Origin: an uncultured Ignavibacteria bacterium
GTDB lineage: Bacteria > Zixibacteria > MSB-5A5 > CAIYYT01
Assembly: GCA_964537215.1 (NCBI GenBank)
Contig: CAZIBI010000018.1
Location: 16,122-80,121, forward strand
Length of the DNA stretch: 64,000 nucleotides
Reading direction: 5' to 3'
Below are positions 15,615-58,302 of this stretch, piece after piece (position 1 is the first letter of the stretch; each line of letters begins with the position of its first letter). The notes under the pieces are model-generated. The model had not been told where the DNA came from. It did no database searches and saw only the letters and a list, made by a program, of their open reading frames with translations. A program made the translations under genes and the position numbers.

Positions 15615-15857
15615 ATGAATGACAAGAAGCTGACCCTGGCGGATCTCAAGCCAGGCGAAAGTGCGCGTATCGTGGCCGTTCATGCGAGTGGCCTGGCGCG
15701 GCATCGATTGATGGACTTCGGCTTCCGGTGCGGTGAACAAGTGACGATGGTGCGCAAGGCGCCCTTGTCCGACCCGATCGAATACAAACTGCGCGGGGCT
15801 TATGTCAGTCTGCGCAAGACCGAAGCGGGACAAATTGAAGTGGACAGCCGGCAATGA
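15615..15857 (+). CDS. feoA: Ferrous iron transport protein A
   Basis: 80 aa. SD GGGAG 5 nt upstream of the ATG at 15615. SH3-like FeoA pattern 'LADLKPGESARIVAV...RLMDFGFRCGEQVTMVRKAPLSDPIEYKLRGAYVSLRKTEA'. Overlaps the feoB start (ATGA). Confidence 0.85.
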   Translation: MNDKKLTLADLKPGESARIVAVHASGLARHRLMDFGFRCGEQVTMVRKAPLSDPIEYKLRGAYVSLRKTEAGQIEVDSRQ

Positions 15858-18007
15858 TGACCGTTGACGTAGACAAAAAGTCGTTCACTGTCGCGTTGGT
15901 GGGAAATCCCAACTGCGGGAAGACTTCGGTTTTCAACGGACTTGTCGGTGCACGCGCGCACGTCGGGAACTATCCGGGCGTGACAGTGGAAAAACGCAGT
16001 GCGACGCTTACTCGCGGCGGACTGCAGATCGAATTTGTCGATTTGCCGGGAGTGTATTCGCTTTCAGCGGCGACTCTGGATGAACGCATCGCCCGCAAAT
16101 TTATCCTGCACAACAAGCCCGACCTCGTTGTCAATGTCATCGACACCGGCAATCTCGAACGCAATCTCTATCTCACCGCGCAGGTGATGGAGATGGGCGT
16201 GCCGATGCTCTTCGTGCTGAACATGTGGGATGAAGCGCAGAAGCAGGGCATCGTCGTGAACGAGGAGAAACTTTCGCGGATGCTCGGCGGACCTTTGGTC
16301 AAGACTGTCGCTCACAAGGGCGAGGGTGTCAAGGATCTGCTGGATCTGACCGTGAAGTTCTTGCAGGACCGCGAGGCCATGGTCACTTTCGCGCCGCGCG
16401 TCAAATACGGCGGCGAGATCGACCGGCAGATTGCCGCGATAACGCGCACAGTCGGATCGACCAGTTGCAACACATTACCGCCGCGCTGGTACGCAGTCAA
16501 TCTGCTTGAGAATACAGTGAATATCGACGACTTCGCCAAACCGACGGTCGAAGAGCGCGAGTTGATTTTCAGTCAGGTTGCCGATTCCAAGAATCGGATC
16601 AAAAAACAAATGGGGCATGAGTCGGACACGGCGATTACGGATGCGCGCTATCGTTATATCGGCGATGTTCTGGATACGGCTGTTAATCGCGGCCGGGACA
16701 ATCGCATGCAGTTTTCGAACCGGCTCGATTCGATCCTGACGCACAAGTATTTCGGCTATCCGATTTTCCTGTTCTTCATGTGGTTGATATTCCAGGCGAC
16801 ATTCATGATCGGGCAGTATCCGGCGGAGTGGATCGACACCGGTGTCGGAGCACTGCAGGGACTTGTATCAGGATTGCTGCCGGCGGGGGTGTTAAACGAT
16901 TTGATAACTGACGGCATGATCGGCGGCATGGGCGCCGTGCTGGTGTTCCTGCCGAATATCATGATATTATACCTTGGCATCGCCGTGATGGAAGATTCCG
17001 GCTATATGTCGCGGGCAGCGTTTATGATGGATCGCTTCATGCGTGTGCTTGGGCTAAACGGCAAGGCGTTCATTCCGCTGCTAATGGGATTTGGCTGCAA
17101 TGTCCCGGCAATTATGGCGACGCGGACGCTCGAATCGCACCGCGACCGTGTGTTGGCGGTATTGATTATTCCGTTCATGTCTTGCTCGGCGCGGCTTTCC
17201 GTTTACGTGCTGTTTTGCGGAGCGTTTTTTGCCGGTCATGCCGGTAATGTGATTTTCAGCCTGTATTTACTGGGTATCGCGGTGGCGGTCGGGTTTGGGC
17301 GATTGCTCAAGCACAGCTTGTTCAAAGACGACACTGCACCATTCTTCATGGAGTTTCCGCCATATCGCCGGCCCACTTTCAAAGCCGGCCTGCTGATGAT
17401 GTGGGAGCGGGCGAAGATCTACTTAGGCAAGATCGGCGGCGTGATATTGGTAGCGTCGATCGTGATTTGGTTCCTCGGAGCATTTCCGCGCATCGACAGC
17501 TACTCGCAGGATTACGATACGCAGATCGCGCAATTGCAACAGCAACCGACGGAAGCTGCCGGCGAGCAGATCGTCCATTTGCAAAGCCAGATGAAGATTG
17601 AAGAGATCCAGCACTCGTACATTGGCAGACTGGGTAATTTGATTCAGCCGATCATCGAGCCGTTGGGATTCAACTGGCAGATGGGGATCGCGCTGATTAC
17701 GGGATTTGTTGCGAAAGAAATCGTCGTGTCGACACTGGGTGTGCTCTATCAACTCGGTGAGGATGTCGACGAGTCGTCTACTTCGCTAATGACGATTATC
17801 AGCGACCCGTCGGGCGGAATCTCGCCGTTGGTGGCGTACGCCTTCTTAGTGTTCGTCCTGCTCTATACGCCGTGCCTGACTGTGATGGCGGCGATGAAAC
17901 GCGAAATCGGCGCCAAGTGGATGTGGTTTGGGATGTCGGTGCAGTTGGTGATTCCGTGGATCGTGGCGTTCGCTATTTATCGGATCGGGATGCTAATCGG
18001 GATGTAA
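15854..18007 (+). CDS. feoB: Ferrous iron transport protein B
   Basis: 717 aa. N-terminal G-domain 'VALVGNPNCGKTSVFNGL...GNYPGVTVEK'. Followed by a polytopic membrane domain with the conserved FeoB gate region. Confidence 0.95.
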   Translation: MMTVDVDKKSFTVALVGNPNCGKTSVFNGLVGARAHVGNYPGVTVEKRSATLTRGGLQIEFVDLPGVYSLSAATLDERIARKFILHNKPDLVVNVIDTGNLERNLYLTAQVMEMGVPMLFVLNMWDEAQKQGIVVNEEKLSRMLGGPLVKTVAHKGEGVKDLLDLTVKFLQDREAMVTFAPRVKYGGEIDRQIAAITRTVGSTSCNTLPPRWYAVNLLENTVNIDDFAKPTVEERELIFSQVADSKNRIKKQMGHESDTAITDARYRYIGDVLDTAVNRGRDNRMQFSNRLDSILTHKYFGYPIFLFFMWLIFQATFMIGQYPAEWIDTGVGALQGLVSGLLPAGVLNDLITDGMIGGMGAVLVFLPNIMILYLGIAVMEDSGYMSRAAFMMDRFMRVLGLNGKAFIPLLMGFGCNVPAIMATRTLESHRDRVLAVLIIPFMSCSARLSVYVLFCGAFFAGHAGNVIFSLYLLGIAVAVGFGRLLKHSLFKDDTAPFFMEFPPYRRPTFKAGLLMMWERAKIYLGKIGGVILVASIVIWFLGAFPRIDSYSQDYDTQIAQLQQQPTEAAGEQIVHLQSQMKIEEIQHSYIGRLGNLIQPIIEPLGFNWQMGIALITGFVAKEIVVSTLGVLYQLGEDVDESSTSLMTIISDPSGGISPLVAYAFLVFVLLYTPCLTVMAAMKREIGAKWMWFGMSVQLVIPWIVAFAIYRIGMLIGM

Positions 18008-18047
18008 GCGACACCAGACCTCTCTAAATCATCCTTCAGACAATTTT

Positions 18048-18083
18048 AGAGCCGCCTGATTATCGGGCGGCTTTTACTTTTGG
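18048..18083 (+). terminator. Rho-independent terminator after feoB
   Basis: Hairpin 'AGCCGCC-tgattatcg-GGCGGCT' followed by TTTACTTTTGG. Confidence 0.6.
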
Positions 18084-18131
18084 CGCCGCACTTGTAACCC
18101 CAGTGTCACAGATACCAAGCATCTTCACAAA

Positions 18132-18169
18132 TGTCGATAATTATTGTCGATTTGACACGGCTTTGACAC
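18132..18169. promoter_or_regulatory. Short direct-repeat array (TGTCGAT x2, TTTGACAC x2) upstream of the TonB-dependent receptor gene: candidate operator/promoter
   Basis: TGTCGAT at 18132 and 18145. TTTGACAC at 18151 and 18162. The half-site resembles the TGACAC arms of the feoA-upstream palindrome. Confidence 0.3.
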
Positions 18170-18203
18170 AGACGCGAGTGAAATCCCTAATTTTAGCACG
18201 GCT

Positions 18204-20420
18204 ATGAGACGATTAATGGGAAGACGGTTGCTCGCTATGAATAACATGAGAGAATTCCCATTGATGCGTCTAATTACGATTCTCATATTTGTCCTACTCC
18301 AGACAGTCTTCACTGCAAACGGTCTACTCGCAATTCAACTCTCCGGAACAATTGTTTCGGCAGATTCACGCGAGCCGGTGGTCGAAGCAAACGTCCTCGT
18401 TGAAGAGCTTGATCTCAAACTGCGCTCGGAACTTGACGGTCGATACCGAATTAATCTCGACAGACCGGGCACTTACCGCTTGAATATCACCCATGTGAGC
18501 TTCGAGAAGAAAGTCCTCGACATCAGCATCGGCAGCAATGATACAACGATCGTAATCGTGCTGTCGCCGCGGACCTATATCTACGACGAGGTCGTTGTGA
18601 CGGGAACGCGTACGCCGTATTTGCTCAAAGATGTTCCGGTGACGACGGAGGTTATCCGCACCGAGGATGCGATTCAGACCGGCGCTACGACGGTCGACCA
18701 GGCGCTGAACTCGGCGGTTGGAATCAATATCGACAACAACTTTTCCGGAAGCGGCGCTTCGTTGCGGGGTATCGATCCGACGCGTGTGTTAATTCTGGTC
18801 GATGGGGAGAAAATGGTCGGGCGAGTGCGCGGGGCGATTGATCTGGCGCAAATCTCGCTCGCCAATGTCGAGAAGATTGAAGTTGTCAAGGGTGTCGGCT
18901 CGACGCTTTACGGCAGCGACGCGATTGGCGGGGTGATCAACATTATCACGCGCAAGCCCACGCAATTGCGGCTGTACAGTTCCGGCGAGTACGGAACCTA
19001 CAACACTTACGCGCAGAATCTTGATCTCGAAACCAAGCACGGGAATTGGGGACTGCAGATCGGTTCGCGCTTCGACCGCACTGACGGATTCGATCTCGAC
19101 AAATCAACGCCGCACACGAACGGAATGGAGCGGATTAAGCGCTTCAATCTCGACAGCAAGATCACGCGCAAGTTGTCCAAGGCTTTTGATCTGACGCTGA
19201 ACGGCAACTTTTTCCGCGAGCGCAAGAATTGGATTGAGTCGGAATACATCGATCCGTTTACCTACACGTTTGACGATGAAGAAAACAACTATCGGTATTC
19301 AGCGGGAAGCAAACTGAATTTCCAGCCCAGCCCGCGGACGCTGGTGGATTTCAATATTTACGGAACCTATTACGACCACCTGTGGGAGAAATTCACCGCC
19401 AGCGGCAATCTGTCCGACAAGTCGCGCACCGAGGACTATCTCGGCGAGGCTTCGGTCAATGCGACGCACAGTTACGCCGAGGGCCATGTCATTACGATGG
19501 GCGGCGACTACGTGGCGCAGTCGCTCAAATCAGTGGAGATCGACGGCGGCAAGCGGGACGTGTCCAGCGGCGACCTGTACATGCAATACGAGTGGAAGCC
19601 GGTCGAGAACTTCACGGTGTTGCCGGGGATTCGGCTGGAAGAACATTCGACTTTTGGTGAACATGTCAACGCGTCGATCAACCTGATGTACAATCCGCAT
19701 CCACGCTTGCGCATTCGCGGTTTTCATGGCGGTGGATTTCGCGCGCCTTCAATCAAGGAATTGTATTTCCGGTTCGACCACTCGGCGGCTGGATATATCG
19801 TGGTTGGCGGCGGGGTAGATCTGCGGCCGGAAAAGTCGCGCAACAGTTCAGTGTCGCTTGAGTACAGCTACGAGGGGATCGGCCTGCATCGCGTGACGTT
19901 TTTCTACAACGACATCAATGACATGATCGAATTCAACCTGACGGGATTTTCGCCGACTTATTGGCGCGGTATCTACAAATACGAGAATGTTTTCAAGGCC
20001 TACACGCGCGGAATCGAATGGCAGAGCGAGATCAAGGTCAATCATCATATCGACTTCTCGCTGTCTTATACCTGGCTGACCGCGAAAAATCGCGAGACCG
20101 GGCACTGGCTGCTGAATCGTCCCGAGCATTCGCTCAAGCTGCTGCAGTCGCTGCATTTCGACAAGGCGGGGTTGATCATCACTGCGTGGGCGAGCTGGTA
20201 CTCGGGCAAACTCTGGGTGCCGCTGGGCGAGCAAAATAATTTCGAATCGGACATCTGGGCGCCGACGCGTCGCGATGTCAATTTGAGCGTGTCACAACGC
20301 GTGTGGAAGAATGTCGAGGTATTCGCGCGCGGCGAGAACTTGACCGATGACGTCGAGGTCGATTTCGGCTACTGGCCGGGGCGGACCTTCTACGCCGGAG
20401 TTCGTTGGAATGGAAAATAA
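18204..20420 (+). CDS. TonB-dependent outer-membrane receptor with N-terminal carboxypeptidase-regulatory-like domain (HmuR-like by context)
   Basis: 738 aa. Signal peptide probably starts from the internal Met at 18264 ('MRLITILIFVLLQTVFTANG'). A CarbopepD_reg-like segment (LSGTIVSADSREPVVEANVLV...GRYRINL) is followed by a plug ('VVVTGTRTPYLLKDVPVTTEVI') and a 22-strand barrel. Followed by an HmuY-like lipoprotein gene. Confidence 0.85.
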   Translation: MRRLMGRRLLAMNNMREFPLMRLITILIFVLLQTVFTANGLLAIQLSGTIVSADSREPVVEANVLVEELDLKLRSELDGRYRINLDRPGTYRLNITHVSFEKKVLDISIGSNDTTIVIVLSPRTYIYDEVVVTGTRTPYLLKDVPVTTEVIRTEDAIQTGATTVDQALNSAVGINIDNNFSGSGASLRGIDPTRVLILVDGEKMVGRVRGAIDLAQISLANVEKIEVVKGVGSTLYGSDAIGGVINIITRKPTQLRLYSSGEYGTYNTYAQNLDLETKHGNWGLQIGSRFDRTDGFDLDKSTPHTNGMERIKRFNLDSKITRKLSKAFDLTLNGNFFRERKNWIESEYIDPFTYTFDDEENNYRYSAGSKLNFQPSPRTLVDFNIYGTYYDHLWEKFTASGNLSDKSRTEDYLGEASVNATHSYAEGHVITMGGDYVAQSLKSVEIDGGKRDVSSGDLYMQYEWKPVENFTVLPGIRLEEHSTFGEHVNASINLMYNPHPRLRIRGFHGGGFRAPSIKELYFRFDHSAAGYIVVGGGVDLRPEKSRNSSVSLEYSYEGIGLHRVTFFYNDINDMIEFNLTGFSPTYWRGIYKYENVFKAYTRGIEWQSEIKVNHHIDFSLSYTWLTAKNRETGHWLLNRPEHSLKLLQSLHFDKAGLIITAWASWYSGKLWVPLGEQNNFESDIWAPTRRDVNLSVSQRVWKNVEVFARGENLTDDVEVDFGYWPGRTFYAGVRWNGK

Positions 20421-20457
20421 AATTACGAAACAACATAACTATAGAAAGGAAGCACTG

Positions 20458-21546
20458 ATGAGGTACTTCAAATTATTAGCGGGCATTGCGATTTTGGCGG
20501 CGGCGCTGGTTGGCTGCTCAAATGATGACAATGGGACGGGGCCGAACCAACCTGACAATACGGCGTCAACGACGTGGGATGGCGTCGGCAAGTTCTGGGT
20601 TACTAAGTTAAACGCTAGCGCCGTATTGACCAGCGACTACGCGTATTATAGCTTTGCGAAGCGGGACACTGTGTCTTTAACGGATGCAGAAGCCAAGACT
20701 TCCAATAGCTGGGACATCGCCTTCAAGAAGAGTTACATCAAGACCAACGGCGGAAAATCCGGTCCCGGGGATGCGAAGGGTGTGGACTTGGTCACTGCCG
20801 GAATCGTTGCAGAAGACCAGTTTGAAGATGTCGACACGGCAGAACTCAACGCTGTGGAAGCATCGGATTGGATGTCCGATGGCTACGATTTTGCCCTCGA
20901 CAGTCTGTGGAACTACAATCAAGCTACGCACCAGCTTAGTCCGAAGCAGTACGTGTACATACTGTCTGATGCAATGGGTAATATGGTGAAATTCCAGTTG
21001 CTGAATACAATTGGGGGCGGCGCACCGCCACAACAGGGCAAAATGGTCATCAAATATTTCTATCAGCCGATAGTCAGTTCTTCGAGCGTAGCCGGCGACG
21101 CTGAAGTTGATACCATCGATGCTCCGGGTGGATTCTATTTTGATTTCTCAAGCGGTCAAGTCGTAACACCTGCCGATCCGGCGAATTCGACTGACTGGGA
21201 TATCAGAGTTTACTCATACGACATCTATCTGAACGGATCAATTTTTGGTCCCGGTCTCGGCGCTGGGTTCCCGGTTTATGACGGACTCGTCGACAAGACG
21301 GATTTCGATGCCGTCGCGAGCGTCAACCAATTTGGCCCGCCGCGCTGGGTACTCGATGAAAGCCAGTCGGCCTTCACGGTGTCGGATTGGTACAATTACA
21401 ATTTTGCAAATCACCAATTGACGTCGAAGAAACACACCTATCTCGTGCAAGTTGGCGGCAAAAGCTACAAGGTCTTCATTGTGACCTATTACGACCAAGA
21501 CACGCAAGCGAGCGGCCACTATACGATCAACTGGGTTGAACTATAG
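20458..21546 (+). CDS. Lipoprotein with two tandem HmuY-like (heme-binding) domains
   Basis: SD AAAGGAAG upstream of the ATG at 20458; the track start at 20347 overlaps the receptor gene and was rejected. Lipobox 'LVGCSN'. Two repeats, 'SNSWDIAFKKSYIKTNGGKSGPG' and 'STDWDIRVYSYDIYLNGSIFGPG', resemble the core 'WDMALHRYDVRLNCGESGKG' segment of Porphyromonas HmuY. Confidence 0.6.
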   Translation: MRYFKLLAGIAILAAALVGCSNDDNGTGPNQPDNTASTTWDGVGKFWVTKLNASAVLTSDYAYYSFAKRDTVSLTDAEAKTSNSWDIAFKKSYIKTNGGKSGPGDAKGVDLVTAGIVAEDQFEDVDTAELNAVEASDWMSDGYDFALDSLWNYNQATHQLSPKQYVYILSDAMGNMVKFQLLNTIGGGAPPQQGKMVIKYFYQPIVSSSSVAGDAEVDTIDAPGGFYFDFSSGQVVTPADPANSTDWDIRVYSYDIYLNGSIFGPGLGAGFPVYDGLVDKTDFDAVASVNQFGPPRWVLDESQSAFTVSDWYNYNFANHQLTSKKHTYLVQVGGKSYKVFIVTYYDQDTQASGHYTINWVEL

Positions 21547-24507: not shown

Positions 24508-25839
24508 TTATTTCGCTGCTGCGCCGCCGCCCCAGATGCCGATATCGGAGCGGCTGCCGTCCAAGTCGGTCAGCACCGAATCACCGGCATTAATCAATGG
24601 CGATATCTGCAACAGGCGGAAAGTAATCGTATCCATAAACATCGGATTGACCGAGAGGTTGCCGAACTTGCCGGTCAGGTCGGCGATCTCCTGATAGTTT
24701 GCCGCCCACTTGATATCCTTGCCTTTTTCCGTTGTCGGAGCGGCGCGTTCGGCGGCGATGATTTCCGGATCGACATAGATGTTGTTATTCGCGATCACAA
24801 AATCGTTCGGATTGCCAAGCATCCAAACGCCGACGCAGGGACAAACCCACATCGCCCGCCAGCCATTATTGTAAACAATATTATTCATGAACACACCGCG
24901 CGGACCGAGCTTGAGCGTCCGGTCGCCCCAATTCGCAAAACCGCAATTGCCGTTGCGATAGATCAGATTGTTGGTGGCTTCCATAAATGACTCGCCGGTC
25001 GCGATCATGCCCCAGCCGAGGCAATCTTGCACGATGTTGTTGCGCGCGACGACGCGTGAAGTCCCGAACGAGCCGATGCCTTTCCAGAAATCGCTGACAC
25101 GGTTGCGCAGGATGGTGGCTTGCGCGTCCCAGGTGACGCCGATACCGGCGCCGCGGCCCTTGCTGATGACATTGTCGGCGATGAACGCTTTGGCGCCGCG
25201 ATAGAGCGCGATGCCGTCCCAGCCGCCGTTGATGATCCGGTTATTCATGATGAACAATTCGGAGCCTTCACGAACGAATATCCCGCCGACGCCGACGATT
25301 ACGGTCGTGTCGCGGTTGTCGTTGTTGATGATTTCGCAATTGCGCACGGTCAAGCGGGAGAACTTGGCGACGATTGCGGCGTCGGTGGCGTTGCCGTCGC
25401 GGTCGCGAACGGCGCCGGTGATGCGGACATTTTCGATACTCGAACCCCAGCTATTCATGAACAGCACGCCGTAGCCAGCGCCGGTGACCAAAGTCACCGA
25501 GTCGCTGCTGGAGCCCTCGATGGTGAGCGCTTTGTCTTTTATCACATAGCCATAGGAAGCTTCGACCGGAGTTGCGGGCTCGAGGCAATTCCCGCAGAGT
25601 TCTTCCGTGAACTTGGTCCCGGTGGCAGTGTAGGTACCGTTGAGTAGAACGATCTTGTCGCCGGTTTGGGCGGAATCGATGGCAACTTGAAGCCCCGTAA
25701 AGGGCGAGCGGAACGAGCCGTCGCCGCCGGGTTCGGCGTCGGCTTTGACAAAGATTGTGTTACTTGCTGGTTGGTATTGCGGGGCGCAGGCCAATGCCAG
25801 GGCGCCGAAAATCATCAGAATTATTATCAAAAAACGCAC
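24508..25839 (-). CDS. Secreted right-handed parallel beta-helix repeat protein (pectate-lyase/NosD-like fold)
   Basis: Signal peptide with 'LALACAP'. Many 'N.I..N' / 'GI.V' beta-helix repeats: 'NCEIINNDNRDTTVIVGVGGIFV', 'NNRIINGGWDGIALY', 'DNVISKGRGAGIGV', 'RNNIVQDCLGWGMIA', 'NNLIYRNGNCGFA', 'NNIVYNNGWRAMWV'. Confidence 0.7.
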   Translation of the reverse strand: MRFLIIILMIFGALALACAPQYQPASNTIFVKADAEPGGDGSFRSPFTGLQVAIDSAQTGDKIVLLNGTYTATGTKFTEELCGNCLEPATPVEASYGYVIKDKALTIEGSSSDSVTLVTGAGYGVLFMNSWGSSIENVRITGAVRDRDGNATDAAIVAKFSRLTVRNCEIINNDNRDTTVIVGVGGIFVREGSELFIMNNRIINGGWDGIALYRGAKAFIADNVISKGRGAGIGVTWDAQATILRNRVSDFWKGIGSFGTSRVVARNNIVQDCLGWGMIATGESFMEATNNLIYRNGNCGFANWGDRTLKLGPRGVFMNNIVYNNGWRAMWVCPCVGVWMLGNPNDFVIANNNIYVDPEIIAAERAAPTTEKGKDIKWAANYQEIADLTGKFGNLSVNPMFMDTITFRLLQISPLINAGDSVLTDLDGSRSDIGIWGGGAAAK

Positions 25840-51299: not shown

Positions 51300-51797
51300 C
51301 TAATCTTCCATCATCGACGAGCCCTCGTAGTCGAACCAACTGATATTGCCGCGGAGAGATTCACGCTCGGCGGCAAGCATATCATAGTGGCCGTCTTCTT
51401 CGGCCGTCAACTCGGCAAAGACTTGGCGAATCTGGGCGTCACCGGCTTTGGCTTCGCCGTCTTTGTAATGTTTGGCGGTGAGGCGTTCGGCCTCCATCGC
51501 CAATTCAATCAAGCGAAATTTATCGGCTTCCGCAAGTGGTCCGTCGCCAAAAGCATTCTTAAAAATGGCGAGGCCCTCGGCGGGGAGATCGGTTACGTCC
51601 TTGCCGACGAATTTCTTGTACAGGGTGCGCAACGTGCGCTCGTGATTGACCTCGTCCATTGCCAGCATTTCGATTTTCTTGCGCGCATCGGGATTCTTGA
51701 CCTGTTGTGCAAGCGTGGAATAGAAATGTTGGCCCTCGATTTCGGTTTTGATGCCGATTTTGATGATGGCTTCGAGTTGCTTATTGACGTCCGTCAT
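51300..51797 (-). CDS. Rubrerythrin-family / ferritin-like diiron protein (no rubredoxin domain)
   Basis: SD AAGGAG 7 nt upstream. Diiron ligand helices 'EIEGQHFY', 'AMDEVNHERTL', 'AMEAERLTAKHY', 'TAEEDGHYDML'. Confidence 0.75.
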   Translation of the reverse strand: MTDVNKQLEAIIKIGIKTEIEGQHFYSTLAQQVKNPDARKKIEMLAMDEVNHERTLRTLYKKFVGKDVTDLPAEGLAIFKNAFGDGPLAEADKFRLIELAMEAERLTAKHYKDGEAKAGDAQIRQVFAELTAEEDGHYDMLAAERESLRGNISWFDYEGSSMMED

Positions 51798-52206: not shown

Positions 52207-52554
52207 GAGCAAGACACCTCACGTTAAAGGCGACATTGTCGCCAGAGATTACGGATTAATTTAAGCAATTTGGGGCGGAAGTGGGGGAATATTCGCGGTG
52301 AGAAGTATCGACAATCGGGACAAAATGGAGGAGAAATGAAGGTTGACGGGGGAGAAACACACCCCGTCTCCGAGCCTTATTCTTCGGCTCGGAACCACCC
52401 CTCTTGAGAAGGGAACTAACGAGACTCACTGGAAGAAACCGGGTAGCTCAATCTCGCCTCTCTCCGAAAGAGAAAAAGGGCAATCCTTTTCGGGCAAATG
52501 AGTCGCCAGTTTCGACTTGTGGCGGCACTTAGGATTGGGTATTAGTTTGGGGTA

Positions 52555-53226
52555 ATGCAGAAGCTACTCAAAGATGCGGTCATTTTCCGGGAGCTTGATT
52601 CGGAAGAATTCAAAGCGATGGAAGAGATCACCCAATTACGACATGTCGACGGCGACGCGATGCTGTTTTTCGAAGGGGATCCAGCGAACGGTTTCTTCGT
52701 GCTGCTGTCGGGACGCGTGCGGATCTACAAGTCTACTGCGGATGGCAAAGAGTTTACCCTTCATCAGATAACGCCCGGCCAGGTGTTTGCAGAAGCGGCG
52801 ATCTTTCGGGGAAACACCTATCCGGCCAATTGTATGGCGATGGAAGACTCCGAAGTCGCGTTCATCCCGAAAGACCAGTTCATCCGGCTGATTACCAAGT
52901 ATCCCAATATCTCGCTGAAAATCATCGGCAGCTTATCGCGATGGCTGCGGGAATTTGCCGCCAAACTGGAAGATCTGTCGTTGAAAGAAGTTCCGGCGCG
53001 GCTTGCGACTTATTTGTTGCGGCAGCGGCAAAGATTGAAGTCGGATAGTTTTGAGCTGGACATCACTAAGGCCGAACTAGCCAGCGAATTAGCCACGATC
53101 AGCGAGACCCTTTCGCGTAGTCTGAAGAAATTGAAGGACTTAGAGGTAATTGCCGTGGATGGCAAGCGCATTACCATTCTCGATTCCGACCACCTTGATT
53201 CTATTGCTGCTGGGGAAAAAATCTAA
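52555..53226 (+). CDS. Crp/Fnr-family transcriptional regulator (cNMP-binding domain plus C-terminal HTH)
   Basis: 223 aa. 'AMLFFEGDPANGFFVLLSGRVRIYK' is a cNMP-binding beta-roll. C-terminal 'TKAELASELATISETLSRSLKKL' is an HTH. No N-terminal Cys cluster, so probably not a classical FNR. Confidence 0.85.
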   Translation: MQKLLKDAVIFRELDSEEFKAMEEITQLRHVDGDAMLFFEGDPANGFFVLLSGRVRIYKSTADGKEFTLHQITPGQVFAEAAIFRGNTYPANCMAMEDSEVAFIPKDQFIRLITKYPNISLKIIGSLSRWLREFAAKLEDLSLKEVPARLATYLLRQRQRLKSDSFELDITKAELASELATISETLSRSLKKLKDLEVIAVDGKRITILDSDHLDSIAAGEKI

Positions 53227-53312
53227 TCGAATTGACTTAAATCAAGGACTCATTGGGCCCACTTTCCGATCCTGACTTTGAAGGAGTTAAGATCCTTCGA
53301 AGGATTGTGAAG

Positions 53313-54446
53313 ATGGTTATGAATAGAGCACGTGATAGCAACAGCGGCGGCGAAAGCACGCCAACCGTTAACTCCAAGCCCAAAGTCACAAAGAACCGTC
53401 AGGCCTCAATCCAGAAATGGCGGCTAGCCGTTCAGGTCGGATTCGCTTTGCTCTGCGTTTGGATCGGGATCGAGATGCACGTTTTCGTGAAGTATCTCGA
53501 ATCGGGCGGATCGACGGCTTTCATTCAACGCCCCCCCGGCGTCGAAGGGTTCCTGCCGATTAGTTCGCTGATGAGCCTGTACTATTTCTTCCTGTCGGGA
53601 GAAATTCATCCGGCGCATCCGGCAGGGATGGTGATTCTCGTCGCGATCATAATGCTGTCGCTGGTCTTTGGGAAGGCGTTCTGCGCGTGGCTCTGCCCGG
53701 TAGGATTAATCTCCGAGGCGCTGGGCGATCTGGGGCAGAAGATATTTCGCCGGCGGATTACGATGCCGCGCTGGCTGGATTATCCGCTGCGGAGTTTGAA
53801 GTATCTGCTGCTGGCATTTTTCGTCTACTCGATTTTCTTCGTGATGGGCAAGTTCGCGCTGCGGGCCTTTCTCGACGGCGACTACAATCTCGTTTCCGAT
53901 ATCAAGATGTACTATTTCTTCGCGCAGATTTCGAAGTTGTCGATGATCGTGATCGGCGCACTAGTGCTGCTTTCGATTCCATTGCGGGGATTCTGGTGCC
54001 GGAATTTGTGTCCGTACGGTGCGCTGCTGGGGCTGCTATCGTTGGCGTCGCCGCACAAGATCAAGCGCAATCCAGTGTCGTGCATTGATTGCGGTAAGTG
54101 TGCGCTGAAGTGCCCGTCGTTTATCAAAGTCGACAAAGTCAAGACGGTCATTTCCGACGAGTGCACTTCGTGCATGGCTTGCGTCGATGTCTGTCCGGTC
54201 GCGGATACACTTGAGGTGAAGTCGCTGGTCACGCGCAAACCGGTGCACAAGCGCTGGGTGGCGATCGCGACGGTGGGGATATTCGTTGCGATTACCGGAC
54301 TCGGAATGCTCACCGGTTACTGGAACAACAAAGTCACGACTGAAGAGTACCTTCAGCATCAGCAGTACATCGAGGGATATGGACACCCGACCGATCCGGA
54401 TGGACTGTCAAGAATGAATCAAAATACACCGGCGCAAAAGCGCTAA
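53313..54446 (+). CDS. Membrane-bound polyferredoxin-like 4Fe-4S protein, NapH/MauN/CcoG family
   Basis: SD GAAGGA 8 nt before the ATG at 53313. TM helices. 'CAWLCPVG' and 'WCRNLCPYG' are NapH-type CxxCP motifs in membrane loops. Two ferredoxin motifs 'CIDCGKCALKCP' and 'CTSCMACVDVCP'. Confidence 0.75.
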   Translation: MVMNRARDSNSGGESTPTVNSKPKVTKNRQASIQKWRLAVQVGFALLCVWIGIEMHVFVKYLESGGSTAFIQRPPGVEGFLPISSLMSLYYFFLSGEIHPAHPAGMVILVAIIMLSLVFGKAFCAWLCPVGLISEALGDLGQKIFRRRITMPRWLDYPLRSLKYLLLAFFVYSIFFVMGKFALRAFLDGDYNLVSDIKMYYFFAQISKLSMIVIGALVLLSIPLRGFWCRNLCPYGALLGLLSLASPHKIKRNPVSCIDCGKCALKCPSFIKVDKVKTVISDECTSCMACVDVCPVADTLEVKSLVTRKPVHKRWVAIATVGIFVAITGLGMLTGYWNNKVTTEEYLQHQQYIEGYGHPTDPDGLSRMNQNTPAQKR

Positions 54447-54467
54447 TCAATAGAAGAGGTTTATCGC

Positions 54468-55706
54468 ATGAGTGAATTAATAAACAACGCCAGCAAACGC
54501 CGAGAATTGCTGAAGCACCTGATATTGCAATTGCACAAGGGCGAGGCCGCCGACCAGGTGCGGACGCAGTTGCAGCGCATTCTTGGCCAGGTACCCTACG
54601 ATGAAGTCATGGCTGTCGAAAAAGAATTGATCGACGAGGGTCTGCCGTTGACGGAAGTGTTGAAGATGTGCGACATCCACAGTGCTGCGCTCAAAGGCGG
54701 AATCGATACTTCGGCGGCCAAATCCGCGCCGGCTGGGCATCCGGTTGATACGTTGCTGAAAGAAAATCGTGCGATCGAATGGGAACTTGAAGGGCTGAAG
54801 AAGGCATACGCGGTGGTGGATTCCGGCGCGACCGGAGATGCGCTCAAGGATGCAGTGGCGCAAGTTCGCTCAAACCTGCACAAGCTATACGATGTCGACA
54901 AACACTACCGGCGCAAAGAGAATCTGATCTTCCCGTTCCTGGAAAAGCACGGAATCACCGGACCGCCAACTGTGATGTGGGGAAAGCATGATCAGATTCG
55001 CGAATTGCTCAAGGCCGCGATTGCGACATTCGAGCAGACGGAGGAGTTCAATGCTGACGAAGCGCGCACATTGGTGGAACTGGTCTATAGACCGGCGTCG
55101 GACGGCATCGAAGATATGATCTTTAAGGAAGAGCAGATTCTCTTCCCGATGTGCATGGACACGCTTTCGGAACAAGAGTGGTGGCAAGTACATAATCAGA
55201 GTCTGGAAATCGGGTTCTGCTTGTTTGATCCGACAGATGATTGGATGCCATCAGGGGAAACTGCTGTTGCGGGCGAAGGCATGAATGATGAAGGGCGGAT
55301 CCAGTTGCCGTCCGGGAGTATGACTCCAACCGAGTTGAATGCAATCTTGAACACGATCCCGTTTGACCTGACCTTTGTGGACAAGGACGATACGGTGCGT
55401 TATTTCACGCAAGGGCGGGAGCGTATCTTCGATCGCAATCGAGCAATCCTGGGACGCAAGGTGCAACTTTGCCATCCGCCGCACAGCGTGCATATCGTCC
55501 AACGGATCATCGAAGACTTCCGTTCGGGCAAGCAATCGCGGGCGCCGTTTTGGATTACGATCAAGGGGCGATTCATTCATATCGAATATTTTGCGCTGCG
55601 CGACAAGCAGGGCGAGTATCTCGGAACGCTTGAAGTCAGCCAGGACTTAACGGACAAGCGCGCGCTCGAAGGTGAACAACGCCTGCTTGAATACATGAAA
55701 GACTAA
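54468..55706 (+). CDS. DUF438 / hemerythrin-like / PAS three-domain protein (putative redox or gas sensor)
   Basis: 412 aa. N-terminal DUF438-like region. Central hemerythrin-like segment ('ENRAIEWELEGL...HYRRKENLIFPFLEKHG...WGKHDQIRELL'). C-terminal PAS-like domain ('LNAILNTIPFDLTFVDKDDTVRYFTQGRERIF...GRKVQLCHPP'). Confidence 0.6.
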   Translation: MSELINNASKRRELLKHLILQLHKGEAADQVRTQLQRILGQVPYDEVMAVEKELIDEGLPLTEVLKMCDIHSAALKGGIDTSAAKSAPAGHPVDTLLKENRAIEWELEGLKKAYAVVDSGATGDALKDAVAQVRSNLHKLYDVDKHYRRKENLIFPFLEKHGITGPPTVMWGKHDQIRELLKAAIATFEQTEEFNADEARTLVELVYRPASDGIEDMIFKEEQILFPMCMDTLSEQEWWQVHNQSLEIGFCLFDPTDDWMPSGETAVAGEGMNDEGRIQLPSGSMTPTELNAILNTIPFDLTFVDKDDTVRYFTQGRERIFDRNRAILGRKVQLCHPPHSVHIVQRIIEDFRSGKQSRAPFWITIKGRFIHIEYFALRDKQGEYLGTLEVSQDLTDKRALEGEQRLLEYMKD

Positions 55707-55720
55707 GGGAAGGGAACAGT

Positions 55721-56263
55721 ATGGCTCAAGTTGAAATTCTCACGATCACACCCGACACAAAGATCGGACCGCTGTTGGACCGGTATCCACAGTTGGAGGC
55801 GCCGCTGATGAGATTGTCGCCGGCGTACGCGAAACTACGCAATCCGCTTTTGCGCAAGACAGTCGCCAAGGTCGCGACGCTGCAGCAAGTAGCCAAGATC
55901 GGCGAAGTGCCGATCGGGGTTTTGATCAACACGCTGCGGAAGGAACTCGGGATCGAGGAGAAGTGGAGCGGCGGAAGCGGCGAGAAGTCGGATCGCGGCG
56001 ATGTTCCAGACTGGTTCGCACAGGCGAAGATCTCGATGTTGCTGGATGCGGCTCCGATACTCGAAGCGGGCGAGCACCCGCTCAATCGCGTCATGAGTGA
56101 TTTGCAAAAACTGGAACCGGGCGCGATCTACGAACTGGTGACGCCATTCGTGCCGGCGCCGCTGTTGGACGCAGTGAGCAAGAAGGGATTCGAGGTCTGG
56201 TCGCAAAAGCAGTCGGACGGGACGGTGCGATCGTATTTTTGCCGAAATTCGTTTGAGGTGTAG
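55721..56263 (+). CDS. DUF1858 plus DUF2249-like two-domain protein
   Basis: Starts 15 nt after the DUF438 gene. N-terminal 'ITPDTKIGPLLDRYPQLEAPLMRLSPAYAKLRNPLLRKTVAKVATLQQVAKIGEVPIGVLINTL' resembles DUF1858 (ScdA-N-like). C-terminal 'EAGEHPLNRVMSDLQKLEPGAIYELVTPFVPAPLLDAVSKKGFEVW' resembles the DUF2249 / TusA-like fold. Confidence 0.5.
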   Translation: MAQVEILTITPDTKIGPLLDRYPQLEAPLMRLSPAYAKLRNPLLRKTVAKVATLQQVAKIGEVPIGVLINTLRKELGIEEKWSGGSGEKSDRGDVPDWFAQAKISMLLDAAPILEAGEHPLNRVMSDLQKLEPGAIYELVTPFVPAPLLDAVSKKGFEVWSQKQSDGTVRSYFCRNSFEV

Positions 56264-56288: not shown

Positions 56289-56741
56289 CTACAGCTGCTT
56301 CTCCATCTGCAGTGCGTCGCAGTCGTCTTCGTAGTACTTGGCGACGCGGCCGGTGATTTCGTAGCCGGCCTCTTTGTATAGGGCAATGGCGCGTTTGTTG
56401 TCGGCGCGAACTTCCAAAGTGAAGCGATCACAGCCGCGACGGCGTGCTTCTTTTAGACAGACTTCAAGCAAACGCTTGCCAAGACCGCGACCCTGTAAAG
56501 CTGGATCGACAGCGATTGTGTACAAATGCGCTTTAGTGGAGTTCTTGCGCCAGAGAACGATGGCTGATCCAGAAATGACTTTTCCGACGGTCAGCACGAA
56601 GGCGGTAGAGTTGGCTTTGGCGATCAGGTAGCGGTACTGTTTGCGTGTGAAGAGATCGAATTCGAAGCTGCGGTTTTCCAACTCGACCATGCCGCTTAAG
56701 TCTTCTTTGCGCACTCTGCGGACGCGGATAGTTTGCGACAT
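56289..56741 (-). CDS. GNAT-family N-acetyltransferase
   Basis: ATG at 56741 overlaps the upstream TGA (TGATG). Acetyl-CoA motif 'LYTIAVDPALQGRGLGKRLLEVCLKEARRRG' and motif B 'RAIALYKEAGYEITG'. Confidence 0.8.
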   Translation of the reverse strand: MSQTIRVRRVRKEDLSGMVELENRSFEFDLFTRKQYRYLIAKANSTAFVLTVGKVISGSAIVLWRKNSTKAHLYTIAVDPALQGRGLGKRLLEVCLKEARRRGCDRFTLEVRADNKRAIALYKEAGYEITGRVAKYYEDDCDALQMEKQL

Positions 56742-57625
56742 CAACCCCAATCACCCACAAGATACGTTATCAGTTTTTCATACAGTTCCGGCGCTTCCTG
56801 GTCTTCCTCGTCTTGATTGATGGTCGGGTTGTCGTTGACTTCGATTACGAGGTAGCCGTCGTCGGCTTGCTTGAGATCGACGCCGTAGAGGCCGGTGCCA
56901 ATCGCCGCGGCTGCCTGCACGGCAACGTTGATCAACTCCGGGTCGGCTTCGCTGATCGGGATGCCCTTGACTTCACCATAGATGGCACGACCCGCGTCGG
57001 TATAGGTCATGATCTTCCAACGTTTTTTGGGAATCATATACTGGCAGACGAATAACGGCTCGCCGGCAAGTACGCAAACACGCCAGTCGAATTGAGAGCG
57101 GACGAATTTCTGTGCGACAACGCGATCGGCGCGGCGCAGATAACGGGTGCCGACAGCCACGAATTCCTCCGGAGTAGCGACCTTTTCCACATACATCGAA
57201 AAACTCGAGTTAGGCGCCTTAAGAACAAGGGGCGCACCCATCGCTTCGAGCAGCCTTGCGCCGGTGGCGTGGTTCAGATCGGATTCGATCAGGAACTGTG
57301 TTTCCGGCATCGGCACATTTTTGTCCTGCAGATGGCGGTACATGTTGACCTTGTCGCAGCAGATGTAGATTGACTCGGGGTCGTCGATGACGCGGAGCCC
57401 GTTCATTTGGGCGAGACGGGCGGCGACGTAGGAACTATTGAGCGGGTCGGTCAGTGCGCGAATGAAGATGGCGTCGTAGCCGGGAATCTTGTACATGTCG
57501 GGGCGAAAGAGGAAATCCAGGCGGTGGCCGAGCATGTGCGCGACCTGGCCGAGTTTCATCAAGGCTCCCATTTGCTCCGAGCTGCTCATGGTGTAGCGCT
57601 CGACGAAGACACCTATGTTAGCCAA
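56741..57625 (-). CDS. RimK-type ATP-grasp ligase (alpha-L-glutamate ligase-like amidoligase)
   Basis: 294 aa. Aligns by eye with E. coli RimK: 'YDAIFIR' (FDAVIPR), 'CCDKVNMYRHLQD' (ARDKLRSMQLL), 'GAPLVLKAPNSS' (GAPLVVKLVEGT), 'GVDLKQADDGYLVIEVNDNP' ([20 protein letters not shown]). Coupled to flanking genes by overlapping stop/start codons. Confidence 0.75.
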   Translation of the reverse strand: MANIGVFVERYTMSSSEQMGALMKLGQVAHMLGHRLDFLFRPDMYKIPGYDAIFIRALTDPLNSSYVAARLAQMNGLRVIDDPESIYICCDKVNMYRHLQDKNVPMPETQFLIESDLNHATGARLLEAMGAPLVLKAPNSSFSMYVEKVATPEEFVAVGTRYLRRADRVVAQKFVRSQFDWRVCVLAGEPLFVCQYMIPKKRWKIMTYTDAGRAIYGEVKGIPISEADPELINVAVQAAAAIGTGLYGVDLKQADDGYLVIEVNDNPTINQDEEDQEAPELYEKLITYLVGDWG

Positions 57626-58302
57626 GCATCGACTCGTTTCTGGAGATAGAATCGTTCGCGATCATTGAGCTTTGCGAACGGGAGCGGATTGATATCACTA
57701 AGCAGGATGGATTCGTCGCGCAGCTGAATGATGCGCACAACGGCGAGGGGAATCCGCAGCACCCGCCAGATTGCTTCCGCGAGCGGCCGATGCGCAGGAA
57801 CGACACTCCAGCCAAGTATGGCGCGGAAGGTTCCGATCTTGGCGCCGCTAGGAATTTCCTGACAGCAAATCGCGTATTTGAAATTGCGCGTCATCGATTT
57901 TGCGACGCGGTCGACATGACCGTGTCTTTCGACTATGCTATGCCGCGTCATGAAGGGATTGATGGTATCGATAATGACAGGCGGCTCGAAGTGGCCGTTA
58001 GTTATGTACCACTCGGGGACCGGGACGTCGTTGAGCCTTGCTTTTTCGAGCATAAGCGGCGTGATGTAGGCATCGAGCGCTTCTTTACAAGTCGGGTGGA
58101 TCGTCAAGCCGTCGGCTTCGAGATCCAGTGAGTTATAGTATCCAGTTTCAAGGTAATTGTAGTTGCCGGCGAGATTGACCAGGCAGTTTTCATCGCGCAG
58201 GCGGGCGAGGAATCGCTGCCCCCGGGGTTTTGGAATCGTGGAGTCGAGTCGTGTCAACTCCGCGACGATGTTCGTGCTATTACTGTCCTCGTCCGATTGC
58301 AT
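57613..58302 (-). CDS. Hypothetical protein co-operonic with RimK-type ligase and GNAT (possible RLAN-type accessory domain)
   Basis: 229 aa. No motif I can name with certainty. Its 3' end overlaps the ligase start by 13 nt, implying translational coupling. Confidence 0.35.
   Translation of the reverse strand: MQSDEDSNSTNIVAELTRLDSTIPKPRGQRFLARLRDENCLVNLAGNYNYLETGYYNSLDLEADGLTIHPTCKEALDAYITPLMLEKARLNDVPVPEWYITNGHFEPPVIIDTINPFMTRHSIVERHGHVDRVAKSMTRNFKYAICCQEIPSGAKIGTFRAILGWSVVPAHRPLAEAIWRVLRIPLAVVRIIQLRDESILLSDINPLPFAKLNDRERFYLQKRVDAWLT

Follow-up and report, generated by a model that had tools for sequence, protein, structure and literature searches.

In Escherichia coli, the promoter of yccM, the gene of a membrane polyferredoxin, is bound by the nitric oxide (NO) sensor NsrR, together with those of ytfE, hcp and hmp (chromatin immunoprecipitation, ChIP-chip and ChIP-seq; PMC5320621). 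For yccM of Desulfuromonas, an HcpR site (TGACCcAGGTCAA) has been predicted (PMC545781), and YccM has been regarded as homologous to CcoG but devoid of its Ig-like domain (PMC7558416). For the hemerythrin-type di-iron protein YtfE (RIC), Crack et al. consider the physiological reductant, so far unknown, as 'likely to be a ferredoxin' (PMC9052748). Within the searchable literature, yccM and ytfE are mentioned together only as items of NsrR target lists. Here, we study a locus in which a yccM-type gene directly precedes the gene of a hemerythrin-like protein. It comprises four genes at positions 52555-56263 of a 64-kb stretch of contig CAZIBI010000018.1 (assembly GCA_964537215.1, an uncultured bacterium), which is referred to as the window in the following.

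The four genes are located on the plus strand with gaps of 86, 21 and 14 nucleotides (nt). They encode a Crp/Fnr-family regulator (gene 1, here called crp), a YccM-family polyferredoxin (gene 2), a protein composed of DUF438, hemerythrin-like and PAS_10 parts (gene 3) and a DUF1858-DUF2249 protein (gene 4). Their common orientation had been noted in a sequence-only reading of the window and is confirmed, as are, by Pfam, all of its domain calls (with DUF2249 of gene 4 being borderline). The four genes are a real operon and act as a single unit. With modest confidence, we read this unit as a self-contained nitrite/NO stress operon in which YccM feeds electrons to a di-iron cassette analogous to RIC. 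The combination had been considered not to be a described system. A tie of yccM to NO regulators had already been published (PMC5320621, PMC545781).

Related loci and gene calls

Relatives were collected by a scan with one genome per species, which provided 469 genomes with a YccM-like relative. From these, 80 loci were kept, and all their open reading frames (ORFs) were searched with the proteins of the window, with YtfE and Hcp from E. coli, and with sequences derived from the loci. The nearest proteins are found in metagenome-assembled genomes labelled Zixibacteria/GN15 or 'uncultured Ignavibacteria'. For gene 2, we use position 53313 (MVMNR...) as start instead of the listed ORF start 53253, because the homologues are 375-378 amino acids (aa) long and the promoter lies in between.

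Identity of the polyferredoxin

The gene 2 protein is 45% identical to YccM of E. coli K-12 (b0992) over 331 of 377 aa (E 1e-100). It shows two CX3CP motifs (Fer4_5), a 2x[4Fe-4S] ferredoxin domain with two CX2CX2CX3CP motifs, and, at its C-terminus, a fifth helix. Across 20 homologues, none of the Cys motifs varies, and the identity between Zixibacteria and Ignavibacteria sequences is about 60%. Based on these comparisons, we classify the protein as a YccM orthologue. It had been taken for an orphan NapH-like protein, which does not agree with the model scores. That is, the NapH/MauN models are matched with 81.3 bits (TIGR02163, cut-off 213) and 83.6 bits (NF007013, cut-off 234), and the CcoG/FixG model with 25 bits (TIGR02745, cut-off 316.7), the protein ending about 40 aa past the fifth helix. 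The NosR/NirI model yields 34 bits (NF046105, cut-off 1000), with a match confined to the C-terminal polyferredoxin part.

No nap or mau genes are present among the annotated ORFs of the window or in the 80 related loci. The larger annotated ORFs across the window (with a few shorter ones upstream of 46 kb not being covered) include no gene of the nap, nos, cco, hcp or nor type, such that the absence of a nearby nap/nos/cco operon, as stated by the sequence-only reading, stands in this range. We considered a NosD-like beta-helix protein (24508-25839) as a sign of nos genes and rejected it, since it scores better as generic Beta_helix and nosZ is not nearby.

The YccM subfamily of the window also carries invariant His-rich motifs, namely EIHPAHPAG and YGHP (H99, H102, Y346, H358), in loops for which an outward orientation is predicted. 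Of these motifs, the first His is not conserved in E. coli YccM. Given the inferred topology, the motifs could form a metal or quinol site on the outer face.

Gene content of YccM loci

A transcription factor directly precedes the YccM cluster in 76/80 loci, with 49 regulators of the Rrf2 and 27 of the Crp type. In 29 loci, a true RIC/YtfE protein, i.e., ScdA_N plus Hemerythrin with 100-134 bits to E. coli YtfE, is encoded by a downstream gene of the same strand, and for about 20 of these the RIC gene is within 300 nt of YccM. DUF438 genes are found in 22 loci, and a DUF1858/DUF2249 gene follows in almost all of them. No locus harbors both RIC and DUF438 (Fisher p 1e-5, kinship ignored). The DUF438 pair occupies the same place as RIC does, i.e., the operon slot beside YccM.

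This exchange is also visible from the gene orders, for which five arrangements were distinguished. Arrangement A (Rrf2-YccM-NirK-NirV-SenC-RIC, in part followed by a globin) and arrangement B (Rrf2-DUF438-DUF1858/2249-YccM-NirK-NirV-SenC-methyltransferase) differ essentially by a swap of RIC for the DUF438/DUF1858 pair. Arrangement C is given by Rrf2-YccM-RIC-globin and arrangement D by Crp-ferredoxin-YccM-octahaem-NapC/NirT-like, while the window represents arrangement E (Crp-YccM-DUF438-DUF1858/2249). The DUF438/DUF1858 pair is observed with Rrf2 or Crp and on either side of YccM. With regard to the synteny of the four genes, the exact order is restricted to one clade; its parts are kept more widely, in several combinations.

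Further recurring partners are a NirK-cytochrome c fusion with NirV (FGE-sulfatase) and SenC (12-14 loci), a truncated globin (11 loci), an octahaem cytochrome with 8 CXXCH motifs (about 10 loci, several of them with a pentahaem NapC/NirT-like partner) and a 260-aa ferredoxin of the AF_0155 type (17 loci). The redox/nitrosative theme that had been suggested for the locus is supported by this comparison, i.e., YccM is accompanied by NirK-NirV-SenC, RIC, globin or octahaem cytochrome and is found behind regulators of the NO-sensor type. The Rrf2 partners show a CX6CX5CX2H motif as known from IscR/NsrR. For 46/48 Rrf2-YccM loci (L003, L015-L085), we identified an 18-bp palindrome TCAGAY-N6-RTCTGA, mostly 21-28 nt (in a few cases up to 166 nt) before the rrf2 start. 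It is unlike the E. coli NsrR site and probably serves as an autoregulatory operator.

Three observations concern individual arrangements. In the Ignavibacteria loci L033, L050, L067 and L072 (e.g., L050:7501-13312), the order is Rrf2-YccM-NirK(cytochrome c fusion)-NirV-SenC-RIC-truncated globin, and nirK is immediately preceded by YccM. According to the predicted gene products, this operon is a compact unit of nitrite reduction and NO protection. Octahaem cytochrome c genes (Multi-haem_cyto) adjoin the Crp-YccM module in L024:2126-6402, L021:2048-6363, L056:9108-11939, L062:9283-12132, L071:9170-12004 and L011:6563-7876. Most have a pentahaem NapC/NirT-like partner, sometimes there is a porin, and three loci show an own regulator box (see below). 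The predicted octahaem/NapC-NirT pair resembles Hao-like nitrite/hydroxylamine reductase modules. Finally, several YccM clusters of both the Rrf2 and the Crp type are closed by a class I S-adenosylmethionine-dependent methyltransferase with weak matches to UbiE/UbiG-, CpaM- and ArsM-type models (L003:11101-11850, L015:13052-13801, L025:8561-9310, L047:5135-5914).

The DUF438 and DUF1858-DUF2249 proteins

The gene 3 protein is homologous to PF0695 (PDB entry 3cax, E 6e-62) and, with its PAS_10 part, also to 2qkp. Its hemerythrin segment is akin to that of RIC (hhalign probability 77%, E 2e-5), while the RIC model TIGR03652 is matched with 22.6 bits at a cut-off of 204.7. An ScdA_N-like nature of the N-terminal DUF438 part was tried and is not supported (hhalign probability 1%). 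RIC/YtfE/ScdA proteins are defined by ScdA_N together with the hemerythrin ligands H84, H129, E133, H160, H204 and E208 (YtfE numbering). In the alignment, H129, H160 and E208 correspond to H146, H174 and E221 of gene 3, and the position of His204 is taken by Met217. The latter is invariant in 20 homologues and also found in PF0695. Further invariant residues are H17, H23, C68, D69 and H71 of DUF438 as well as C335, H336 and H342 of PAS_10, where they form the motif C335-H336-P337...H342. These residues suggest additional cofactor sites, and the metal or cofactor content of the DUF438 family may differ from that of classical hemerythrins.

For gene 4, DUF2249 is scored with 29.0 bits at a cut-off of 29.5 and is backed by homologues. 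The AlphaFold model (mean predicted local distance difference test, pLDDT, of 82) consists of an N-domain made of helices and a C-domain of the alpha/beta type. The latter is nearest to SirA/TusA-like folds, i.e., 3hz7 with a template modelling (TM) score of 0.72 and IscS-bound TusA (3lvj_C) with 0.68, both at weak E-values. No invariant Cys or His was found in the family alignment. Proteins of the gene 4 type are paired with DUF438 genes in Zixibacteria, Ignavibacteria and Anaeromyxobacter. In the cultured Anaeromyxobacter diazotrophicus, the pair is found outside of the YccM context, where it adjoins a c-type cytochrome. DUF438 genes also occur without this partner; one from Desulfovibrio adjoins a permease with an HMA domain. 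As judged from gene neighbourhoods, the DUF438 and DUF1858/DUF2249 genes are a stable cassette that extends beyond the YccM context.

Regulator and operator

The regulator contains one Cys (C93) and no FNR-type Cys cluster, and no Cys column is 90% conserved in 28 orthologues. It scores 66 with the FNR model NF008365 (cut-off 228). The best solved relative is DNR of Pseudomonas aeruginosa (3dkw, E 1e-23). By these features, the regulator is not of the O2-sensing FNR type and resembles DNR/HcpR. HcpR1 proteins are recognized by Ser/Pro and Glu at CRP positions 180 and 181, respectively, combined with the operator TTGACnnnnGTCAA (PMC1274295). The regulator displays the Ser180/Glu181 pattern, the recognition helix S-E-T-L-S-R is kept in the 28 orthologues, and a box is present in 27/28 loci; the HcpR1 signature is assigned from these residues and the operator. 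Co-localisation with hcp, which characterizes HcpR, is not observed, i.e., a phmmer search with E. coli Hcp provides no homologue in the window or any of the 80 loci.

The predicted operator TTGACTTAAATCAA is the sole perfect match of TTGAYNNNNRTCAA in the 64 kb and is located in the 86-bp spacer between crp and yccM. The box TTGAC-N4-(A/G)TCAA occurs in 27/28 Crp-type loci, for nearly all of them 3-7 nt past the crp stop codon and for a few further into the spacer. The Rrf2-type loci (about 50 with about 700 kb in total) contain two stray matches only. For matches with one mismatch, we observe 12 in the window where 8.7 are expected, i.e., chance level. A second box of this kind (51784-51797), which overlaps the rubrerythrin start codon, was dismissed on these grounds. 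Extra boxes are found before the porin-octahaem-NapC/NirT operon in L021 and L024 and before the octahaem gene that lies between crp and yccM in L011.

The sequence-only reading had proposed to look for a Crp/Fnr-type palindrome in the 340-bp intergenic region upstream of crp. Within 300 nt upstream of crp, the Crp-type loci have no palindrome in common. A Crp site in this region was rejected on this result, and the site is found downstream of crp instead. The spacer also carries a block conserved in the Crp-type loci (Table 1), within which GATCCT (53268-53273) forms a -10-like hexamer about 20 nt downstream of the box. This places the center of the box (53238.5) at about -41.5 relative to a predicted start site near 53280, which would be the geometry of class II activation by FNR-type regulators.

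Proposed function and its alternatives

Given these observations, the operon might work as follows. The regulator would be an activator of the DNR/HcpR type that responds to NO or nitrite, in analogy to DNR, HcpR and NsrR, and that senses probably through a bound cofactor such as haem. Acting on the TTGACTTAAATCAA box, it would switch on a class II promoter that drives genes 2-4. YccM, located in the membrane, would exchange electrons with the quinol pool and hand them via the CX3CP and [4Fe-4S] centres on its cytoplasmic side to the cytoplasmic metal centre of the DUF438-hemerythrin protein, for which the DUF1858-DUF2249 protein would be the adaptor. Together, the latter two would do the job of RIC/YtfE, that is, turnover of nitrite, NO or nitrosylated iron, or protection of Fe-S proteins. 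Here, we infer the signal, the direction and partner of the electron transfer, and the chemistry of the metal site.

A more general formulation is that YccM polyferredoxins are the physiological donors that connect the quinol pool to hemerythrin-type di-iron proteins (RIC/YtfE or the DUF438/DUF1858 cassette, so far unrecognised as a RIC analogue) and that, together with an Rrf2 or Crp NO sensor, they constitute a modular three-part unit against nitrosative stress with a wide distribution. We put this forward tentatively and consider it rather doubtful.

Several observations weigh against the electron-donor reading. Since the RIC loci nearly all belong to Ignavibacteria, the mutual exclusivity of RIC and DUF438 is confounded by phylogeny. 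About 29/80 loci encode YccM without RIC or DUF438 within 8 kb (some contigs are truncated), so that the pairing of YccM with a di-iron partner is not obligatory. Conversely, the DUF438/DUF1858 pair is found without YccM in Anaeromyxobacter and Latescibacteria. With Met217 in place of the canonical His, gene 3 may carry no di-iron site of the RIC type at all, and the own invariant Cys and His residues of PAS_10 and DUF438 would suit a sensor. The AlphaFold model of YccM (pLDDT 59.5) is too poor to assess the topology and was left out of the fold search. The lineage is Zixibacteria-like and known from metagenome assemblies only. Finally, the 64-kb window contains no nir or nrf gene; given that hcp and nor are missing as well, the link to nitrogen oxides is drawn from the relatives and from the precedents in E. 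coli and Desulfuromonas.

One alternative is a signal-input device, where genes 2-4 modulate the Crp regulator. That is, the PAS/hemerythrin protein would sense O2, NO or redox state, and gene 4 and YccM would relay the state of the quinol pool. Proposed precedents are NirI/NosR acting with NNR and DrpA/DrpB acting with DnrS/DnrT in Thermus. Gene 4 has the DUF1858 and DUF2249 make-up of Thermus DrpB, which is membrane-associated and whose loss renders nar expression independent of nitrate (PMC6282519). DUF2249 genes are furthermore induced in haloarchaeal denitrification (PMC11218638), the invariant C335-H336-P337...H342 of PAS_10 and H17/H23/C68/H71 of DUF438 are as found in cofactor-binding sensors, and YccM adjoins a transcription factor in nearly all loci (76/80). 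However, the box is located upstream of genes 2-4, which makes these genes targets of the regulator. In addition, a bona fide enzyme-type RIC fills the same slot in 29 loci, the DUF438/DUF1858 pair is also seen without an adjacent regulator, and none of the genes carries an output domain (kinase, GGDEF, DNA-binding). We consider signal input unlikely.

The electron-donor reading was also compared to a module for O2, peroxide or iron stress, which would consist of an O2-switched FNR-box promoter, an O2-binding or iron-buffering hemerythrin and YccM as its reductase, joined by the rubrerythrin, IscU and flavoprotein genes. Campylobacter hemerythrins are reported to shield Fe-S enzymes from O2 (PMC4257069), rubrerythrin, IscU-like and AhpC/TSA genes are nearby, and FeoB and TonB-receptor/HmuY genes are also encoded in the window. 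Such a module is hard to reconcile with a regulator that has no O2-sensing Fe-S cysteines of FNR, with a rubrerythrin/IscU adjacency that is limited to the closest relatives, and with nitrite reductases, RIC and globins being the recurring partners elsewhere, such that we regard it as quite improbable.

Least probable, in our view, is that YccM is a CcoG-like reductase of cupric or other metal ions for metalloenzyme maturation, with the DUF438/DUF1858 adjacency reflecting shared regulation only: its relation to CcoG (PMC7558416), its position directly before NirK, a copper enzyme, and SenC/SCO1, a copper chaperone, in 13-14 loci and the HMA-domain permease beside the Desulfovibrio DUF438 gene would fit, but neither a copper enzyme nor SenC is encoded in most YccM loci, the window among them, octahaem, RIC-only and window-type loci are without a copper protein, and the CcoG model score is far below its cut-off (25 vs. 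316.7 bits).

Features and neighbourhood of the operon

Coordinates of the operon and its associated elements are summarized in Table 1.

Table 1. Genes and sequence elements of the locus with positions in the window.
Feature	Position	Strand	Remark
Palindrome GGCGAC-N3-GTCGCC	52229..52243	.	kept in 6 relatives; 17 nt upstream of iscU start codon
Crp/Fnr-family regulator, 223 aa (gene 1)	52555..53226	+	Pfam cNMP_binding + HTH_Crp_2
Predicted FNR/HcpR-type operator TTGACTTAAATCAA	53232..53245	+	5 nt past crp stop codon
CCGAT(C/A)(C/T)T block, i.e., TTTCCGAT(C/A)(C/T)T	53266..53273	+	conserved in the Crp-type loci at about 20 nt 3' of the box
Leader hairpin GAAGGA-N7-TCCTTC	53279..53299	+	yccM 5' region
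YccM-family membrane polyferredoxin, 377 aa (gene 2)	53313..54446	+	Pfam Fer4_5 x2 + Fer4
DUF438 - hemerythrin-like - PAS_10 protein, 412 aa (gene 3)	54468..55706	+	Pfam
DUF1858 - DUF2249 protein, 180 aa (gene 4)	55721..56263	+	Pfam

On the opposite strand, Pfam identifies neighbouring genes for an IscU-like protein (NifU_N), a rubrerythrin-like protein and a short Pyr_redox_2 flavoprotein. The sequence-only reading had taken these as reinforcing the redox theme. Their adjacency is confined to the closest relatives and already gone in L010, L011 and L016 (65-82% YccM identity), i.e., it is lineage-specific, and the three genes can therefore not be counted as members of the module. Two further clusters were observed in the window. 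Directly downstream of the operon, a trio of GNAT acetyltransferase, RimK-like ATP-grasp protein and RLAN domain protein (56289-58302, minus strand) is kept in the close relatives L002, L006-L009 and L013. An iron/haem acquisition cluster with FeoB, a TonB-dependent receptor and an HmuY-like protein spans 15854-21546.

The region between iscU and crp had been described as a structured leader of 340 bp with at least three perfect hairpins. All three are present, i.e., GGCGACA-t-TGTCGCC (hairpin 1, at the palindrome of Table 1), GACGGGG-N10-CCCCGTC (hairpin 2, 52345-52368) and TCCGAGCC-N9-GGCTCGGA (hairpin 3, 52369-52393), where the centre of the first is 1 nt instead of 'tt' and the arms of the third are 8 nt long. 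A count of three perfect inverted repeats (arms of 7 nt or more) within 342 nt exceeds the expectation from dinucleotide shuffles (mean 0.21, P about 0.001); among the 342-nt windows of the 64 kb, 1.9% hold three such repeats. The idea of a structured leader does not hold for the region as a whole. Its folding z-scores are unremarkable (-1.4 for the plus and -2.1 for the minus strand), no Rfam family matches save a chance miRNA match inside crp, and a consensus search found no terminator-like or sigma-70-like match. Hairpins 2 and 3 (52345-52393) are not terminator-like. Based on these results, a riboswitch or other known RNA in this region was rejected.

Relatives share with this region only the first 120 nt (approximately) and about 45 nt at its end. 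The variable centre between them has unrelated sequence in relatives. There, hairpins 2 and 3 have no counterpart, not even in those that are 92% identical, nor is there a second copy in the window, and both are dismissed as conserved elements. In the window, this hypervariable centre comprises about 180 nt (52332-52509) with two hairpins; in the 92%-identical L006, unrelated sequence of about 1 kb takes its place (L006:6186-7198). This difference suggests an insertion/deletion hotspot or a small mobile element.

Hairpin 1 behaves differently from the other two. Its GGCGAC-N3-GTCGCC palindrome, of which the window holds one perfect copy only, is kept in the same six relatives as the block AATTTAAGCAAT (52260-52271). 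On the minus strand, both elements are situated 17-60 nt upstream of where iscU starts, with hairpin 1 located between the promoter-like element and the iscU ribosome-binding site. By their position, they are assigned to the promoter or 5' untranslated region (5'-UTR) of the divergent iscU-rubrerythrin-flavoprotein unit and not to a crp leader. The palindrome is a candidate operator or 5'-UTR hairpin of this unit, and AATTTAAGCAAT a candidate promoter. In L006, a variant of the palindrome is present whose pairing survives only via G-U on the minus-strand RNA.

Another structure is predicted for the yccM leader. For six close relatives, RNAalifold yields 14 base pairs, with one compensatory change (A-U to C-G, in the inner hairpin of Table 1) and several one-sided changes; because the aligned sequences are close relatives, this evidence is weak. 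In the outer stem (53267-53273 with 53301-53307), the -10 block would pair with the Shine-Dalgarno sequence AGGATTG. If the leader folds this way, the ribosome-binding site would be masked in transcripts that read through from crp, whereas transcripts from the box promoter would not be affected. A silencing of yccM translation in crp read-through transcripts is speculative.

Comparison with known systems

YccM, DUF438, DUF1858 and DUF2249 are widespread families without established function. If true, the reading of YccM as donor would assign a function to all four together. RIC/YtfE has been studied in pathogens, and the question of its reductant (PMC9052748) gains YccM as a candidate. With the comparative picture, genes known from E. 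coli as a co-regulated list become a concrete hypothesis, one that is open to genetic tests in E. coli, and the module suggests how uncultured Zixibacteria and Ignavibacteria, which are common in sediments and soils, organise their handling of nitrite and NO.

Among the described systems, the E. coli regulon under NsrR (yccM, ytfE) shares the polyferredoxin family (45% identity), the NO-responsive control (as predicted for the window) and a hemerythrin-type di-iron partner. The partnership of yccM with the di-iron protein is one of a common regulon in E. coli and of a common operon in Ignavibacteria. The E. coli genes lie dispersed and are under Rrf2 repression, whereas those of the window form one operon behind a predicted activator of the Crp/Fnr type and encode a DUF438-hemerythrin-PAS and a DUF1858-DUF2249 protein in place of RIC.

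In Desulfuromonas, Geobacter and Desulfotalea, the HcpR1 regulon (Rodionov 2004, 2005) is likewise governed by a Crp/Fnr protein without the FNR cysteines, with Ser/Glu at 180/181 and the motif TTGACnnnnGTCAA. Its predicted targets include the yccM polyferredoxin as well as ferredoxin-, hemerythrin- and cytochrome c-like genes. It differs in its defining target hcp, which is found neither in the window nor in the 80 loci, and in the right half-site, which is ATCAA in the clade of the window, as in FNR/DNR boxes.

For the individual proteins, partial counterparts are known. NapH, NosR, NirI and CcoG share with YccM the transmembrane helices, two cytoplasmic CX3CP motifs and the 2x[4Fe-4S] ferredoxin domain, and NosR and NirI accompany N-oxide reductases and affect their expression. 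The YccM protein of the window is without the NapG/NapAB partner, the periplasmic flavin mononucleotide (FMN)-binding domain of NosR/NirI and the Ig-like domain of CcoG. PF0695 of Pyrococcus furiosus (3cax), a structural-genomics entry, matches gene 3 as a homologue in its hemerythrin-like and PAS_10 parts and has the same Met for the fourth His ligand; the aligned region is without the N-terminal DUF438 segment. DrpB of Thermus thermophilus combines DUF1858 and DUF2249, too, and is associated with N-oxide respiration and the regulation of this process. It has two DUF2249 domains and is encoded beside the nar operon together with the periplasmic DrpA, whereas gene 4 has one DUF2249 domain, a DUF438 protein as partner and no nar genes in the window, and is thus not DrpB-like. 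In summary, the locus is a variation of the known NO-stress regulons, i.e., of those governed by NsrR, HcpR and DNR.

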